Shown here piece after piece: positions 12,001 to 30,000 of a DNA stretch of 57,425 bases (positions within the stretch are counted from its first letter, which is position 1; every line of letters starts with the position of its first letter). The stretch is from a bacterium (GTDB lineage Bacteria; Krumholzibacteriota; Krumholzibacteriia; G020349025): the NCBI GenBank assembly GCA_031362565.1, contig JANLSU010000005.1:1-57425 (forward strand). Reading direction: 5' to 3'. The position numbers are program-made.

Positions 12001-15000
12001 TCACCCAGGATCAATGAATGCACACTGGCCGGGGACGAAAGCGTCACCGTGTAGGAAGGGCCGGCGGCGGTGATGACGGCGTCGTCCGCGGGTCCCGGCA
12101 CGCCGTGATCCCATTTTGCGGCGTCGAACCAGTTGCCGCTAGAGGCGTTCTTCCATGCGGTCGTCACGGCCTGCAGCAGCACCGACACGCCGCCTTGCGT
12201 CACGGTTGCAGCGACGAGGTCGGTTCGGTTGTCGCCATTCAGGTCGGCGCCGCGCAGTGCGCCAAAAAAGGTGTTGAGCCCGGTGCCGCCGACGCTGAAT
12301 ACCCGCGACGAGCCGAACGTGCCATCGCCACCTCCGGTCGCTACAAAGACGGCGCCTGCAGGCGCGGAATGCGTCGCGATATCGAGGTGTCCGTCGGCAT
12401 CGAAATCCGCGACGATGGTTGCGGAGGTGCCGGCGATCGCCGCCCCCGAGATCAGGTCCGCGGCAAACGTTCCGCCGCCGGTCCCCAGCAGGACGTGGGT
12501 GCCGGACCCGGCCGACGTCGCGACCAGGTCGATGGTTCCGTCTTCGTTGACGTCGGCGGCGCCGACCGAAAACGGCGTGTTCACCGGCAGCGAAACCGGC
12601 GGGAAGAACCCGCCCTGTGCACTGCCAAAGGCCACGCGGACAGCGTTTTGATTCCGGAATGCCGCCGCCAAATCGGGAAGCCCGTCGCCGTTTAGGTCCC
12701 GCAGGATGAAGGGCGAATCAGAGTAGAAGCCCGGAACTCCCCCGTTCGGGGTGAATGTCCCATTCCCAAGGCCGAGATAGACAAACATCGCGTTGTCGTC
12801 GCGTCCGGCGACCACGAGATCGAGGTTGCCATCCACATCGAGATCCCCCACCGCAATGTTGCCGTCGCTGCCGCCGGTCGCAAACACCAGTCCGGGCGAG
12901 GCAAACCCACCGGCGCCGTCACCGAGCTGAACCGTGACCAGGTTGCCGGTACAACCATTGCCCGATCCGCCTTCGGTCATGACCAGATCCAGTTTCAGGT
13001 CGTTGTTGAAATCGGCCGCCTGGATCTCGGCGATGTTGTGCAGCCAACAGCCGACGCCGGGGTCGAAAACAGTGGGTGGTCCGAAGTTCCCGCCGCCGGT
13101 GCCCAAGAGCACGCCGACCCTCGCCGGCGTCTGATTGTCCGCGGCGTTGAAGCCGGCGGCAATGTCTTGCACACCATCCGCGTTGAAATCGCCGACCGTC
13201 ACGGTCACGGTGTTCCGCGGTCCGGCGGGGCTGATCGGATGGCTGACGAATGGCGCGAACGACGCCCGTGCGAAACAGACACCGGCGCTCGAGAGCAGCA
13301 CGAGCCCCGTCGCCGGCGCCCAAGACCGCACCGCCCGTGCGACCCCGAAGAGACCCGCGTGACCCATCGCACCACTCCTGTACAGTGAGCCCACCGCTGC
13401 TTCGCAACCGCCTCAGAGCGCCGGCTTGAACAGCAGCAGGTTGCCGCGCTGCGTTTCGTTCGGATGGTAGAGGTGGCAGGTCGTGCACCGGTTGGATGCC
13501 TCGTCCGGCTTATGGCACTCGCGGCAATTCTGGATGCCGGGAATGTTCTGGATCGAGGCGGTATCCATCGCCGGATCGAATTCTTTTCCGGCCAGCATCT
13601 CGTCGGTCATCGGGATCGAAGTGTGGCAGGCGAGGCATCGGCGATCGACGATGTGGGCGGCGTGATCGAACTCGGTGCGGCGCAGAGTTCGCTGGTCGGG
13701 CGTCACACGCAGGAGTGCGCCGTCGACGAGTTGGTGGCACTCCGTGCACTTGAGCGCCAAATGCGCCGCCAACGTGTCGAGCGCCGCCTGCCGTGCCGCC
13801 CCGGCCGCCGGGACGCCGCTCGCCGCGACCGAGAATGCCGGATCCGAACCCAGATCGTTGTTGGCGCTTCGCACCTTGCGACGGGCGACGGTGAGCAGCG
13901 AGTCGATCCACTGCAGTTCGGTCACGATCTCGGGCTCGGGCCGCCCGCGGAGACCCATCGCGTAGCCGTCCAGAGTTTGAATCGCTTCGCGATAGAGCTG
14001 CGTCGACGGCACGCCCTCATTGGCGCCGAATTTCACCAGGTCCGCCAGTCCCGCATTGGGGTAGATCCGCCGGCGAATCTGCCGCAAGTTCTCGAGAATC
14101 CACGGGTCCTCGTGGTAGATCGGCGACTTCTTCACCTTGTCGCCGCGCTGTGTGAACTCACTCGGGCTCGAATAGTAAGCCCAAGTGGTGCCGGGGCCGC
14201 CGCGCGCGCGGATCATCTCGAGCGTCTCGACACCGGGTGCTGTTGGGTCGGCGGCTTGGCGCACCGGCAAGAGATCGGTCTTGATGCCGGGTGTCAGATG
14301 GCACTGCGCGCAGTGCACCTCGAAGTCGATGGGGCGGAAGTGTTTGCCGTCCGGCTCCGCAACGTGGCAATAGATGCAAGCTTGCTCGGCGTTGGGCTCC
14401 TGAGTCAGCCGCATGACTTCCGCCAGATGCCGGCGATGCGTAAAGTGCAGTGTTTCGGAATCCGGAATGCGGTCGCGCACGAACTGGAATTCCGGGTGCT
14501 TGCGATTGAAGGACCCGTAGTCGTGGCAACCGAGACACTCCTGGTCACTCATGCGGGTGATCTGCGCCTCTCGCCCGCGGTGCTCGGTGTGGCAGTCGGC
14601 GCACGACTGAACGCTCCCGTGGTGCTTTTCGACCATGAGCGCCGCGCGTTTGGCATCGCCCGACCGGTACACCGAGTGCGCCGCGGCGCTGTAGACCCCG
14701 AGTGCATCGCCGGTCTTTTCATGGCAGATCGAGCATTTCTGGTCGGCGACTCCCTTCGCCGGCGTGTGGCATTTCATGCAACTGGTCTCGATGCGGGCAT
14801 GGGCCGAACTGAGCGGGCCGCCGGACACGAAGCGGCTCTTCAAGAAGACGTTGTCGACGATGACGTACGCGACGATCGCGAGCACGGCGTAACAGCCGTA
14901 TTGGGCGAGCCGCCACTTCCGGGGCATGACGTAGGCCTTCGCGACGCGCAGCCCGGCGCCGGAGAACTGCCCCTTCTCACGATCCGTCCTTTTGGAGCCC

Positions 15001-27000: not shown

Positions 27001-30000
27001 TCGGCACTTGCCGTGGCCATGTAGATACCCATCGAATTCAAAAGCCCCTCGGGAATATCCTCGCCGATACAGGCGATACAGGATTCCTTCAGGAACTCCA
27101 GATGCGAGCTTTCGCACGGCCGGTTCGGGAGTTGCTTGCGGTCGATTCTGAGCGCGAGATAGTCGCGGCGATCCTCGCCAACCACGACGGCCGTCGGCTC
27201 GCTCTTCGGGTGGTAGCGGATGTTGCCGTTGCCGATGTACGCCTCGAAAAAGACCTCCGCCAGCGCCTTGGACACCCGCGGCAATTTCTCGCCCCGATAC
27301 GACCAGAACACGTTCGTCGGATCCTGCGCGGTGATTTTCGCATTCGAAATCGCGATGACCGCCTCGGCGGCCGAAGTGCCGCCGCCGATCACACACGCCG
27401 GGCTGCCGACGTACGCGGCCGCGTCCTGGAGACGAAACGCGATGCCGTCCGTGTTGCCTGGAATATCGAAGCGGCGCGGCACCCCTCTGCCGATCGAGAT
27501 CACGACATGCCGGGCGAGGAAGTTGGCCGCCGCCTGGGCTTTGTGGTTCCAACAACGAACGTTCCAGACCTTGTCCGGCCGCCGCTCGAGACCCAAAAGC
27601 TCGACGCCCACCTGAACCGGAACCTCGCCCTCCTGAAAGTGCCGCTTCCAGAGCAGCACCATTTCATCCTTGTCGATCGGTGCGAAGTGCAGGCGCGCGA
27701 AGAGCGCTCCGCCCACCGGGAATCGCATCCGGTCCCCGCCGCCGAAATCCGGCAGGATCGACTTGTCCTTGGGGTATTCGCGAATGCGCTTGAGAATGTC
27801 ATCGTAGTCGATGACCAGCGCCGAGAATCCAAGCTCGCGGGCCCGGAAGGCGACGGCGGTTCCACCGGGACCCGCGCCGACGATCAACGCGTCGAGAACT
27901 TCGTTGGCTTCGCCCAGAACCACGACACGCGCCTCCATGGACCGGTGGTGCAAACCGCGCTGCCGGCTCGCAGTGGCCGCCGCGCCGCCGGCGTCAACTC
28001 AAGACCGTCTCGACCTCACCGAAGAAAATTTGCGCCCCACGTTGCAACTCGACCTGCTGGATCGCCGCCCCACCGACAAAAGTGCGCGAATTCTGTGAAA
28101 TGCTCTGCAACAGCACGCCGCGCGCGTCGACAATCAAGATTGCGTGTTGTTTCGAAACCGTCGGATGCGGAATGACAATGTCGTTGTCCGCGAGGCGCCC
28201 AACGCGGTTCGCGCCGAGCTTCAACTCATGGACGCGTGGTGCCGCGCCCGCGGCGCGCACTTCGAGTTGCAGGCGCGGCGCGGCGGCTACGGCCGGTTCC
28301 GGATGTGGCTCCACACTTGCCGGACGCGGTGGCACGAACGGCGTCGCCGGTGCTTGACGCACCGTCTCGCCGCCCGCCGCAGGACGCGGCGGAATGAACG
28401 GTGCCGCAGGCGCCTGGCGCACCGTCTCGCCGCCTGCCGCCGGACGCGGCGGAACGAACGGCGTCACCGGTCCGATGACGGTCGGCCGGCTCACGGCGGC
28501 GATGCCCGCGACCGCGACCGGGGCAGGCTCCGAAGGCGCCTCCGCCATCATGCTCGCAGGTGATCCGACACTGAAAACGAAGTCGAACTCACCGGCGAAC
28601 GAAATCACGTGCAGACCCTCGAGCCGCACTTTGCCGCGGACCGGCATGCCGTCCAGTTCGGTGCCGTTCGTGCTCCCGAGATCCTCGAGGATGTAGCATT
28701 CGTGGATGGCATCCCACGTAATGCAGGCGTGCCGCGCCGAGATCTGCTCGCTGTCCAACGCAAGCAGTTCGGGCGTCGAGTGGCGTCCGGAGGACCGTCC
28801 GATGGTGAGCACCTCGTGAATCGGCACATCGATGCTCGCCATCGCGCCGACCTTGCAGAACAATCGTGCTCGCATCGTGTTCCTCGCGGTCGTCGTCCTG
28901 ACGTACGAAGGAAAATTCCGCCGGCGCGGTGACTGAGATTGCAAGTTGAGGCGGTAGCCTAACACGGTGGCCGGCGCGTGGGAAGTCCCCACCCTGCCTG
29001 GGCGCGCCGCCGTCCGGCGGCGGTCCGCCGCCGGAGACAACGAGCGTTGCGGTCGAGTGCGCGGACTTTCCAGCCGGATCGGGACTTGCATCGCGCCACC
29101 TTTGGTGGAGGCGCCGTCCGCAGCGGCGCTCGAAGGGTGGATATGGCGCCGCATGAGTTGAGTGCAGAACGTCTGATGGACCTGTGTGTGGAATTCCGCC
29201 GGCGCTCGACGGAAGACCCAGCCTTGACGCCCGACACGTTTTGCTCCGAGTACCCATTGGAAGCCGACCAACTCCGTCCGCTGCTCGCCACGACCCGGCT
29301 GGCGTCCGTCGCCGGACCCGCCGAACCGCAGGACTACCCGCGTTTCCGTCGGCTCAGCACGCTGGGCGCCGGCGGCTTCGGAGAAGTTTGGCGCGTCAAC
29401 GACGCCGATTTTCCGGATCGCGTTTTGGCGCTCAAACGCTTGCGGCCCGATCGACCGGAACTCGCCAATTACATGGTCGAGGAGATCGAGACCCTGCGCC
29501 TCGTCCTCGGGCATCCGGGCGTGCCTAAAATCTATGATTCGTTTCGCGGCCCCGCGGGTGAACCGTACTTCACGATGGAGTACATCGAGGGTGCTTCGCT
29601 GGACAACGTCTTACTCTCCGGGGCGCCTCTCGACCTGCAACGGGCCCTGCGGCTTCTGGGGCAAATCCTGGCTGTGCTTCAGCACATCCACGAACGCGGC
29701 GTCATCCACCGGGATCTCAAGCCGAGCAACATCATGCTGGTGCGCCCCGGGATGGACGACGAGCACGTCACACTGATTGATTTTGGTGTCTCGACGCGCA
29801 TGAACCTCGCCCGCGGGCAAACCACGCAGTTCGCCGATGATGGCTACAAGCCGCCCGAGCAACTCTCCTCCCGCGAGGACGAGCGTGTCGTAGATCAATC
29901 CACCGATCTGTACGCGCTTGGCGTGATTGCGGCGCACATGCTCGTGCGCGTTCCGGCGCACGGGTCGCCGCGCCAAGCCGTGCAGTCGAGCCCGACCCTC

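Follow-up and report, generated by a model that had tools for sequence, protein, structure and literature searches.

The nine-gene operon analysed here is a variant of a widespread predicted bacterial electron-transfer module whose common unit is a core of seven genes. It lies in a 57,425-nucleotide stretch of a Krumholzibacteriota genome (contig JANLSU010000005.1; hereafter the window) and probably carries electrons from NADPH through the inner membrane to an enzyme with ten haems that docks beneath an outer-membrane channel. Its lineage has lost the cyclic-nucleotide sites and gained phosphothreonine readers. The electron chain is supported by a complete series of cofactors and by relatives in which the same domains are fused. 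The full reading, a reductant-export chain that ends in a periplasmic enzyme and is controlled by phosphothreonine, is one that we favour tentatively, with somewhat less than even confidence.

Gene linkage and distribution

Nine open reading frames on the minus strand, with the Pfam domains given in an earlier note on this DNA, occupy positions 13413-28875, followed on the opposite strand by two membrane-anchored Ser/Thr kinases. Of the eight internal junctions, four are overlaps and four are gaps of 4-55 nt. The nine are genuine genes, and they are coupled.

13413..15005, minus strand: membrane-anchored periplasmic decahaem cytochrome c, PtdG-like (ten CxxCH motifs, one N-terminal transmembrane helix)
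15016..15861, minus strand: five-helix inner-membrane protein, predicted dihaem b, similar to PCC4 IMP and PtdF (motifs; helices from a model)
15858..17483, minus strand: PtdE-like protein of the cytoplasm, combining a DmsB/NrfC-type region for four [4Fe-4S] clusters with two degenerate cNMP-like domains (four cluster motifs; PDB matches)
17040..17222, minus strand: roughly 60-residue loop of cNMP-like domain 1 with Thr-hydrophobic-hydrophobic motifs, e.g. at Thr127 (motif counts against shuffled sequences)
17488..18480, minus strand: exported c554-like tetrahaem cytochrome with a Pro/Ala tail, PtdD-like (Pfam, motif histidines)
18477..22178, minus strand: exported decahaem cytochrome c with C-terminal LVIVD repeats, a putative beta-propeller (motif and histidine conservation)
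21438..21458, minus strand: residues 241-247 of the LVIVD protein, a conserved loop without haem (complex model, alignment conservation)
22202..23956, minus strand: outer-membrane beta-barrel of 18 strands, AlgE-like solute-channel class (AlphaFold model, Foldseek); alternative start at 23941
23956..25545, minus strand: predicted lipoprotein carrying a pair of GlcG/HbpS (DUF336) domains (Pfam, PDB alignments)
25542..27938, minus strand: flavoprotein-FHA1-FHA2-[2Fe-2S] fusion (Pfam, NCBIfam, PDB match, residue counts in 120 homologues); GTG at 27923 as alternative start
27994..28875, minus strand: FHA-linker-FHA protein of 293 aa (two FHA domains by Pfam)
29143..30660, plus strand: Hanks Ser/Thr kinase 1, one transmembrane helix, divergently transcribed (Pfam, translation)
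30782..32584, plus strand: Hanks Ser/Thr kinase 2, one transmembrane helix, catalytic motifs intact (motifs, tree)

The claim that the genes travel together holds for the seven-gene core rather than for all nine. In a sample of 80 genome loci, drawn from at least 593 confirmed matches, the LVIVD gene occurs with all six partners in 24 of the 32 loci of at least 20 kb. The FHA-flavoprotein fusion marks a minority subtype (8/80 loci). One metagenome scan returned six loci, against the 80 of the earlier note, and the gene counts given here come from the genome loci. Searches with the fusion now yield 838 matches (previously 840); FHA and Pyr_redox domains are present in all 120 homologues listed, the majority of them close to full length and about 50-59% identical. 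Within the host phylum, the LVIVD protein is indeed restricted to one of 208 genomes, and the same count for the fusion is a floor, its search having had a stricter first look. The suggestion of lateral acquisition draws on this distribution and on trees, with no contrast in base composition, the GC of 2-kb bins over the cluster (0.62-0.67) being similar to that of the flanks.

Redox cofactors from the cytoplasm to the outer membrane

The flavin part of the fusion is a YpdA/Bdr-like FAD flavoprotein (top PDB match 7a76, E = 1.7e-8; second YpdA/Bdr match 7a7b) that lacks the TrxR CxxC and carries an NADPH-type YRG motif, and its [2Fe-2S] domain has the motif Cys-x4-Cys-x2-Asp...Cys. Electrons would pass from NADPH through FAD to the [2Fe-2S] cluster within one protein and then to the four [4Fe-4S] clusters of the cNMP-like/Fe-S protein, whose PDB matches are ArrB/NrfC-type subunits. 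Consistent with this order, the flavoprotein and the cNMP/Fe-S protein are joined in 29 of the 80 loci as a single fusion arranged flavoprotein-cNMP-cNMP-Fe/S. Three flavoprotein queries matched nothing in four core-bearing genomes (L018, L052, L070 and L013, the last titled as a complete genome), so the family does not strictly depend on NAD(P)H as input; at locus L011, the slot is filled by an unrelated FNR-type NAD(P)/FAD/[2Fe-2S] protein.

From the [4Fe-4S] clusters, electrons would cross the inner membrane through two b-haems. The membrane protein carries two WX3HX13H motifs, as defined by He et al. (2017; PMC5566968), and an SGxxG motif, and is ferric-reductase-like. Its residues H91, H105, H260 and H274 are invariant in the 33 sequences aligned among 120 listed homologues, and both histidine motifs occur in 44 of 51 locus copies. 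Fold searches with its model returned generic helical bundles and no cytochrome b. Among 29 distant matches, the 20 loci that were fetched all have an adjacent multihaem gene, and 11 of them a flavoprotein gene. At L007, the Fe/S protein is fused to the membrane protein, and at L101 a single chain runs FHA x3-TM-decahaem-TM-Fe/S-flavoprotein.

On the periplasmic side, the anchored decahaem cytochrome has exactly ten conserved distal histidines (50-52 of 52 sequences), matching the haem number, and its haems are predicted to be all bis-His-ligated, forming a wire. The tetrahaem cytochrome, previously counted as a three-haem protein, has three CxxCH motifs and here a CX6CH motif; this fourth motif is conserved in 48/48 homologues, and the four motif histidines are accompanied by four further conserved ones (46-48 of 48). 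The LVIVD protein likewise has one haem motif more than the nine assigned before: its nine CxxCH motifs are joined by a CX3CH whose Cys and His positions are conserved in 69/69 homologues. By these motifs, the c-haem total is 24 (10+4+10). Electrons would flow along the anchored wire and through the tetrahaem shuttle to the LVIVD decahaem. Distal histidines equal the haems in the first two cytochromes, and the haem part of the LVIVD protein has 15 conserved non-motif histidines for ten haems (n = 69), making it a candidate terminal enzyme. The surplus histidines may be structural. Searches found no relative of this protein with a solved structure; its match to ExtM is partial (E = 7e-24; 84 bits, with the cut-off at 800). 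By analogy, the structural comparison of PtdA's stated homologue, the T. tepidum pentahaem c552, with the polysulfide reductase MccSep may also count for an enzymatic role.

At 73 of 75 loci the barrel and LVIVD genes are neighbours, and the barrel is retained in all five genomes tested, in two of them unlinked. Its homologues end in an aromatic residue (62/62). The AlphaFold model (pLDDT 88.6) has 18 strands by DSSP; its best Foldseek match is AlgE (E = 1e-15), it scores 0.95 to alginate-export clusters in the ESM Atlas, and the listed Foldseek matches, headed by solute channels, include no MtrB-type barrel. A model of the barrel with LVIVD residues 42-520 of 1233, built without haems, scores 0.70 (best of three controls 0.00); the mark applied is attained by 116/157 solved pairs and 2/215 mismatched pairs. 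Its runs share at least 31% of contacts, with a partner pLDDT of at least 67. In this model, the interface contains no CxxCH residue and loop 241-247 enters the barrel, probably from the periplasmic side, judged by the order of the strands. The pair therefore looks, in the model, like a channel and an enzyme rather than a haem wire: the LVIVD protein would dock by its haem-free loop under a channel that brings substrate. The trans-envelope route claimed earlier is supported from cytoplasm to periplasm, whereas a crossing of the outer membrane is doubtful.

The lipoprotein had been described as haem-binding on the strength of a Pfam label, yet its alignment contains no conserved haem histidine (best column 33/54). 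Its C-terminal domain retains an EfgA-type pocket (K371 in 53/54, S481 in 54/54, D488 in 53/54), judged against the published EfgA and PduOC residues, and may bind a small substrate or product.

Regulatory domains and adjacent kinases

The window's copy belongs to a clade of 11 members (SH-aLRT 99) in which the label "cNMP-binding" is a Pfam designation for domains whose key residues are absent. Both phosphate-binding arginines are replaced by Gln and Trp in 11/11 members, whereas they are retained in 37/37 and 36/37 sequences outside the clade. No class III cyclase was found in the marker-complete host genome, although four of five clade relatives encode one; such genes occur in 8 of the 80 loci, none of them in the clade. 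Cyclic-nucleotide control, as proposed before, is therefore not supported for this clade by its sequences. That a copy might answer to both cyclic nucleotides and phosphothreonine is highly improbable, even though the Pfam cNMP_binding match lies above cut-off, the binding-site Glu is kept by both domains in 11/11 members and cyclases exist elsewhere in most clade genomes: the arginines are gone, and the cyclase search, which covered class III and not I, II and IV, was negative in the host.

The evidence for phosphothreonine control is indirect and comes from domains, motifs and neighbours. FHA2 of the fusion is intact (G-R, S and S-x-N-G in 120/120 listed homologues, H in 108/120), and FHA1 is partly degenerate (Asn in 17/120). 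Four of the six FHA domains encoded genome-wide lie within the operon, and across its relatives the module carries FHA domains in at least four places. Across 9 of the 11 clade members, the loop of cNMP-like domain 1 contains 16 Thr-hydrophobic-hydrophobic motifs (L001 and L027 lack the loop), against a shuffle mean of 2.3 and a maximum of 8 in 1000; this pattern was picked after inspection of the sequences, and outside the clade there are four motifs in 4 of 42 sequences. The loop is a candidate both for phosphorylation by a kinase and for docking of an FHA domain. In the FHA-only protein, the C-terminal FHA retains G-R in 10/10 sequences, the N-terminal one has G-K in 8 of 9 relatives, and the Pro/Ala linker carries ten Thr-hydrophobic motifs in 7 of 10 sequences (shuffle mean 2.0), making it a candidate GarA-like decoy or adaptor.

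A kinase gene is present in 10/11 clade loci but in 3/37 others, and a PP2C gene in 3/11 and 0/37. Because the 11 members form one clade, arginine loss and kinase linkage count as a single event. The window's kinases are sister paralogues, among 44 kinases in the genome, and a tree separates them from those at other loci, which spread over several clades and are not orthologous; a functional link to the module is unproven. We tentatively propose that relatives gate the chain with cyclic nucleotides, often with a flavoprotein-Fe-S fusion, while in this clade FHA2 of the separate flavoprotein would dock on a phosphothreonine of the Fe-S protein's loop, a Ser/Thr kinase switching assembly and the FHA-only protein serving this phospho-switch as decoy or adaptor.

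Direction of flow and comparison with known systems

The same hardware could run inward, the barrel-docked decahaem oxidising a low-potential substrate, such as an aldehyde on the GlcG-fold lipoprotein, with electrons ending in NADP+, ferredoxin or quinone. The equivalents of EfgA's formaldehyde pocket and the four core genomes that lack a flavoprotein match speak for this possibility, which we consider unlikely; the Lys/Ser/Asp pocket is general to DUF336 and not aldehyde-specific, and searches of the LVIVD protein turned up no known oxidase motif. Moreover, ferric-reductase-type dihaem proteins usually carry electrons outward from NAD(P)H. For similar-looking modules, inward flow was proposed by He et al. 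(2017; PMC5566968), who modelled PCC4 in this way, and in the Ferrigenium preprint discussed below.

Extracellular electron transfer across both membranes through a true porin-cytochrome conduit, also suggested in the PCC4 and ptd papers, would explain the co-inheritance of the barrel with the c-haems and its modelled binding to a decahaem whose C-terminal five haems lie outside the model. It is quite unlikely given the 18 strands, the nearest structural matches and the haem-free interface. By record titles, the hosts include aerobes and predators that are not known as metal respirers. Slighter still is the chance of a redox or ligand sensor in which the cytochromes sample the periplasm and cNMP-like, PilZ or FHA domains signal to kinases and cyclases. 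Signalling domains do appear repeatedly on the cytoplasmic side (FHA in at least four different positions, PilZ at L014), cyclases, kinases and PP2C are the commonest extra neighbours, and HbpS and EfgA are themselves sensors. However, a flavin, five Fe-S clusters and as many as 24 c-haems would be a heavy cost for sensing, and the redox core is constant while kinases and cyclases are not orthologous and are missing from some loci. Reductant export to a periplasmic enzyme remains our preferred reading.

In kind, the module has already been described in silico, as PCC4 (He et al., 2017) and as ptdABCDEFG (bioRxiv 10.1101/2023.11.21.568154). The inner half matches: both have an FAD/NAD(P) oxidoreductase, a tetrahaem, a cNMP/4Fe-4S protein, a decahaem and the ferric-reductase-like membrane protein with its paired histidine motifs and SGxxG. 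Both also have an outer-membrane barrel, PtdB being compared by description. The outer half differs, in that the operon lacks the pentahaem PtdA and has the 1233-aa LVIVD decahaem and double GlcG lipoprotein. In addition, its flavoprotein bears FHA-FHA-[2Fe-2S], an extra FHA protein is present and the cNMP sites are degenerate. In Ferrigenium straubiae (bioRxiv 10.64898/2026.01.22.701106), a cytoplasmic FHA domain belongs to a membrane-anchored nonahaem cytochrome, not to a flavoprotein, and the cytochrome is encoded next to a five-TM protein and a [4Fe-4S] protein. This arrangement resembles the L057 and L079 fusions found here; section 6.3.2 mentions no barrel, LVIVD or GlcG protein.

The Geobacter extHIJKLMNOPQS cluster shares a small porin (ExtI), a multihaem enzyme and carriers (selenoenzyme MccSep/ExtKL, cytochromes ExtM/N, the former partly matched by the LVIVD protein) and a membrane cytochrome b (ExtP), but its input is Rieske/cytochrome b, and the accessible description mentions neither an NAD(P)H flavoprotein nor regulatory domains. 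In MtrAB-type complexes, too, a single operon encodes a barrel together with decahaem cytochromes, whereas the window's AlgE-like barrel has 18 strands against the 26 given for MtrB and a modelled interface free of haem. Literature searches found no case of an FHA-regulated electron-transfer chain. The FHA-regulated enzymes and transporters GarA/OdhI and Rv1747 share the Rad53-type G-R, S, H and N residues and Thr-bearing linkers; in the window, by contrast, the target would be an electron-transfer chain.

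Organisation and spread of the operon

Our best reading of the operon, held with rather less than even confidence, is NADPH-driven reduction of a periplasmic substrate under phosphothreonine control. From position 28875 down to 13413 on the minus strand, Pfam matches give the order FHA-FHA protein, flavoprotein-FHA1-FHA2-[2Fe-2S] fusion, double GlcG/HbpS lipoprotein, barrel, LVIVD multihaem protein, c554-like cytochrome, cNMP-like/Fe-S protein, membrane protein and decahaem cytochrome. Four of the eight junctions between these ORFs overlap and the other four span 4-55 nt, as in one coupled operon. 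Beyond the FHA-FHA gene, on the opposite strand, lie two membrane-anchored Hanks kinases. Further features of the window are:

6039-13394, minus strand: phytase-Ig-PKD protein and 1600-aa FG-GAP/FlgD-Ig protein, following the operon after a 45-nt gap; neither gene is conserved beside other operon copies
18465-18492, minus strand: 11-bp hairpin whose loop contains the stop codon of the LVIVD gene and, overlapping it, the start codon of the tetrahaem gene
32670-36905: TPR, CsgG-like and uncharacterised genes downstream of the kinases
45357-48141: second occurrence of a paralogous pair from the preceding stretch

The hairpin is possibly a translational-coupling or attenuation element, with a weak signal against shuffles (z -1.8); promoter and terminator scans stayed at chance level. 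In two metagenome loci of the window's subtype (L082 and L084), weak homologues of the TPR, CsgG-like and uncharacterised genes likewise follow the kinase gene.

The earlier note was right about the presence of multihaem genes, but its counts of nine haems for the LVIVD protein and three for the c554-like protein have to be raised to ten and four. The additional motifs are a CX3CH, kept at its position in 69 of 69 LVIVD homologues, and a CX6CH, kept in 48 of 48 c554-like homologues, bringing the c-type haems of the operon to 24. Genes for cytochrome c assembly are present in the genome, in which 19 ORFs bear at least three haem motifs.

A query with the LVIVD protein against a one-genome-per-species collection returned at least 593 confirmed loci in many phyla, 80 of which were compared. 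Loci of at least 20 kb number 32, and 24 of these contain all six core partners of the LVIVD gene; the barrel gene is present in 73 of the 75 loci with upstream room, and in both genomes where the barrel is unlinked from the LVIVD gene, it is retained elsewhere. The FHA-flavoprotein fusion occurs in only 8 of the 80 loci, and a single flavoprotein-cNMP-cNMP-Fe/S chain is found in 29 of 80. FHA counts from one scan with narrow profiles, which missed even the FHA-only protein of the window, are lower bounds. The linkage proposed earlier for a nine-gene set is thus real, but the conserved unit is a seven-gene core, of which the nine-gene form is a subtype found in Bacteroidota, Ignavibacteriota, KSB1, Zixibacteria and one Nitrospirota entry. 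With 838 matches, the fusion is as frequent as previously estimated (about 840), and the reported rarity in the host phylum also holds, the LVIVD gene and likewise the fusion being present in 1 of 208 genomes; the GC content of the cluster is unremarkable. Our metagenome scan yielded 6 loci and did not reproduce the per-gene counts given before for 37 of 80 metagenome loci. Among 72,556 plasmid records, 13 carry the core, on large plasmids or chromids of Sphingobium or Sphingopyxis in every case; on the Sphingobium herbicidovorans plasmid pMSHV (L081), two-partner-secretion genes flank it.

A proposed redox chain into the periplasm

The barrel is modelled with 18 strands (pLDDT 88.6), and its best structural match is AlgE, followed by MOMP, Occ channels and chitoporin, with the ESM Atlas concurring. 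The MtrB barrel is described with 26 strands. Judging from predicted models only, the strand number and the AlgE match speak against an MtrAB-type conduit, in which a barrel of about 26 strands surrounds a haem chain. Prediction of a complex between the barrel and LVIVD residues 42-520 gave a median of 0.70 versus 0.00 for the best of three controls, which passes the mark for such models; the model took about half of the LVIVD protein, without any haems. Of the solved pairs, 116 of 157 reach this mark, compared with 2 of 215 mismatched ones, counts that apply only roughly to our own alignments. The runs share at least 31% of contacts, with a partner pLDDT of at least 67, and place a conserved haem-free LVIVD loop (residues 241-247) on the barrel turns. 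In this model, we assign the touched turns to the periplasmic side and read two further loops as pore-lining. The prediction thereby supports binding of the LVIVD protein to the barrel, and an AlgE-like barrel with a haem-free modelled interface argues against the conduit through the outer membrane that had been proposed previously.

The haem part of the LVIVD protein contains 15 conserved non-motif His residues for ten haems, which would leave spare ligands for a catalytic site. Sequence searches of the PDB with this protein gave no real relative and no c552 match, NrfA appearing only at E 0.12; the ESM Atlas returned uncharacterised multihaem clusters only, and a profile search found 608 representatives at E<=1e-30, all without annotation. 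The Uet cluster was rejected as a relative, since there the LVIVD protein has a gene of its own and is not described as a cytochrome. The GlcG lipoprotein was checked for the axial haem ligand of PduOC, His18; a PduOC-type site was rejected, as no His lies at the aligned position and the best His column (33 of 54) is elsewhere. In the alignment, its second domain retains the Lys/Ser/Asp pocket of EfgA. From the AlgE-like barrel, the modelled contact, the spare His residues and this pocket, we read the outer half as a putative channel for solutes, an enzyme docked to it and a lipoprotein that would bind small ligands.

On the cytoplasmic side, the flavoprotein part of the fusion is nearest to the CxxC-less YpdA/Bdr family. 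Thioredoxin reductases are defined by a redox CxxC between their FAD and NADPH motifs, and this identity was dismissed, because no conserved Cys pair lies between these motifs in the flavoprotein. The idea that the fusion came about just by splitting of the cNMP-fused flavoprotein was also rejected, as the FHA-fusion flavoproteins form a long-branch clade of their own. Among the 120 listed of the 838 fusion homologues, the Arg of what we take to be an NADPH-type motif is invariant. Plant-type [2Fe-2S] ferredoxins carry the motif Cys-x4-Cys-x2-Cys...Cys; in the fusion domain, all 120 listed homologues have Asp in place of the third Cys and the other three Cys are invariant, arguing against a canonical ferredoxin and suggesting a cluster held by Cys3Asp. 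The Fe-S protein carries four cluster motifs of the DmsB/NrfC type. The membrane protein has two WX3HX13H motifs (W87/H91/H105 and W256/H260/H274), whose four His are invariant, and an SGxxG motif (S129-G133), with the HX13H pairs on model helices 3 and 5. Across 51 locus copies, both WX3HX13H motifs are present in 44, SGxxG in 41 and the two HX13H pairs in 49. This combination is the signature of PCC3/PCC4 inner-membrane proteins, which He et al. (2017; PMC5566968) read as dihaem b proteins. Fold searches with the model gave no Foldseek match under E 0.001 and only generic bundles in VIA-align; a Pfam cytochrome b561 match to the copy in locus L061 is weak and below the cut-off. Conserved distal His equal the haems in number in both carriers, exactly ten in the anchored decahaem protein and four in the tetrahaem protein, as for wires.

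Fusions in two loci (L007 and L101) unite neighbouring carriers in the proposed order, and in another (L011) the input slot is occupied by an unrelated FNR-type reductase. In 20 loci fetched from 29 matches to distant membrane-protein homologues, a multihaem gene is adjacent in all 20 and a flavoprotein gene in 11. Related arrangements are:

L101, 1-3966, minus strand: a single chain, at least 1322 aa long, running from three FHA domains through TM, decahaem, TM and a 4Fe-4S dicluster to a flavoprotein, and so merging both cytoplasmic ends with the periplasmic wire
L106 (same genome, contig C105), 6202-11759: another chain built on this logic, made up of a [4Fe-4S]-flavoprotein, a membrane protein in which both WX3HX13H motifs are present, and cytochromes with 20 and 16 haems; no cNMP, FHA or barrel gene was seen
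L107 (same genome, contig C85), 5940-15113: paired-CXXCH cytochrome with 42 haems, close to cytochromes with 7 and 6 haems and to small ORFs resembling lipoproteins

Possible control inputs of the chain

Cyclic-nucleotide domains of the CRP/PKA type are defined by a phosphate-binding cassette with Glu and Arg. Among 53 cNMP/Fe-S proteins compared (11 of the window clade, 37 of a main group, three with an FHA insert and two others), all 11 clade members have lost both phosphate-binding Arg, with Gln and Trp instead, and kept the Glu, whereas the main group retains the first Arg in 37 of 37 and the second in 36 of 37. In the three FHA-insert proteins (L090-L092, from three genomes), an FHA domain interrupts the second cNMP-like site and both Glu are gone; the two other proteins lack the first Arg. 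PilZ occupies the same insertion point in another locus (L014, 17393-19306), and FHA-cyclase fusions adjoin two FHA-insert loci (L099 and L103). Class III cyclases occur in 8 of the 80 loci, none of the window's clade; a search of the window's genome found none, and four of five clade genomes do have them. The loss of Arg at both sites and the lack of a class III cyclase in this genome leave the cyclic-nucleotide control suggested earlier unsupported in this clade.

A kinase gene is present in 10 of 11 clade loci, counting the window, versus 3 of 37 in the main group, and a PP2C gene in 3 of 11 versus 0 of 37, in loci of differing length. In some other locus scans, kinase detection rests on the kinase 2 query. 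The 11-member clade represents a single event for Arg loss and kinase linkage. Kinases near other loci belong to several unrelated lineages; in the tree, those of the window are sisters of each other among 44 in the genome, and orthology with the kinases of other loci was not supported. The operon accounts for four of the six FHA domains that the genome encodes. FHA2 of the fusion matches the Rad53-type set (G69, R70, S85, H88 and N107), with G-R, S and N kept in 120 of the 120 listed homologues and H in 108, and FHA1 retains the phosphothreonine-binding set only partly (R in 98 and N in 17 of 120). FHA domains are also found on the decahaem protein in four loci (L057, L079, L100 and L101) scattered over the tree. 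A loop in the first degenerate cNMP domain contains 16 Thr-hydrophobic-hydrophobic motifs across 9 of 11 clade members, compared with a mean of 2.3 and a maximum of 8 in shuffles, for a pattern selected after inspection. The FHA-only linker has similar repeats; the general T-x-x-hydrophobic motif is not enriched in this linker or in linker 1 of the fusion.

Competing readings and known systems

It is tempting to speculate that a kinase marks the loop in the dead cNMP domain, on which the FHA-bearing NADPH flavoprotein could then dock. Electrons would pass to a decahaem beta-propeller enzyme of a new class, seated beneath a dedicated outer-membrane channel for its substrate, and across phyla the same chain may have had its control input exchanged several times between cNMP, PilZ and FHA. 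Taken jointly, phosphorylation-switched chain assembly, a new enzyme class and a repeated control swap make a doubtful proposition.

Among the alternatives, electrons may flow inward, which we consider unlikely. Three flavoprotein queries, with a positive control in two of the query rounds, gave no match in four core-bearing genomes, which counts against an obligatory NADPH input. A true extracellular conduit would make use of the 24 haems and has the 18-stranded barrel and its haem-free contact against it; we rate it as quite improbable. A sensor in place of a metabolic chain is a further reading, which we regard as very improbable. Dual control by cyclic nucleotides and phosphothreonine, finally, would draw on the retained Glu and meets the loss of Arg in all 11 clade members, leaving it scarcely credible. 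NADPH-driven periplasmic reduction under phosphothreonine control remains our preferred reading.

The core is found at its at least 593 places in many phyla, including the culturable hosts Limnobacter humi and Sphingobium herbicidovorans. If its outer half is a channel with an enzyme, such clusters are unsuitable as markers of extracellular electron transfer or iron oxidation in metagenomes, and a periplasmic redox reaction remains to be discovered. Should the FHA switch hold true, the use of NADPH across a membrane would be under the direct control of bacterial Ser/Thr signalling. The Arg-intact and Arg-lost versions form a natural pair for comparing cNMP with phosphothreonine control.

Literature searches, in which subscription journals were thinly covered, found no experimental study of the core and no paper dedicated to the variant with LVIVD and GlcG genes or to the fusion of FHA domains with the flavoprotein, only the ptd and Ferrigenium preprints besides unrelated papers. 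The latter preprint (bioRxiv 10.64898/2026.01.22.701106) describes an FHA-bearing nonahaem protein whose neighbours are a five-TM protein and a [4Fe-4S] protein, a combination that it terms unreported. A precedent for the pairing of a porin with a multihaem enzyme is provided by the Geobacter ext cluster with MccSep. A PCC4 locus, sought in 251 genomes of the Nitrospirota phylum, was not recognisable in the 20 fetched loci, which contained other membrane-protein/multihaem modules instead. In 16 Nitrospirota-phylum loci (L146-L159, L162 and L164), homologous four-His membrane proteins adjoin very large cytochromes, which carry as many as 68 haem motifs. An Fe-S flavoprotein is often present too, and in some cases a 420-430 aa outer-membrane-like protein.

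By motifs, the inner half of the operon corresponds to PtdC-G of the ptdABCDEFG cluster (bioRxiv 10.1101/2023.11.21.568154) and the inner half of PCC4, all having a membrane protein that carries SGxxG and a pair of WX3HX13H motifs, a tetrahaem and a decahaem protein, a cNMP/4Fe-4S protein and an FAD/NAD(P) oxidoreductase. However, the Fe-S protein of the operon has four clusters, compared with the two stated for PtdE, its cNMP sites are degenerate, and a gene for the pentahaem beta-sandwich protein PtdA (c552/NrfA-like) is missing, the LVIVD protein having ten haems. By analogy, the operon probably works like the PCC4/ptd kind, minus one defining feature, the pentahaem PtdA. The system is real and widespread, and it is a variant of a kind described in silico only.
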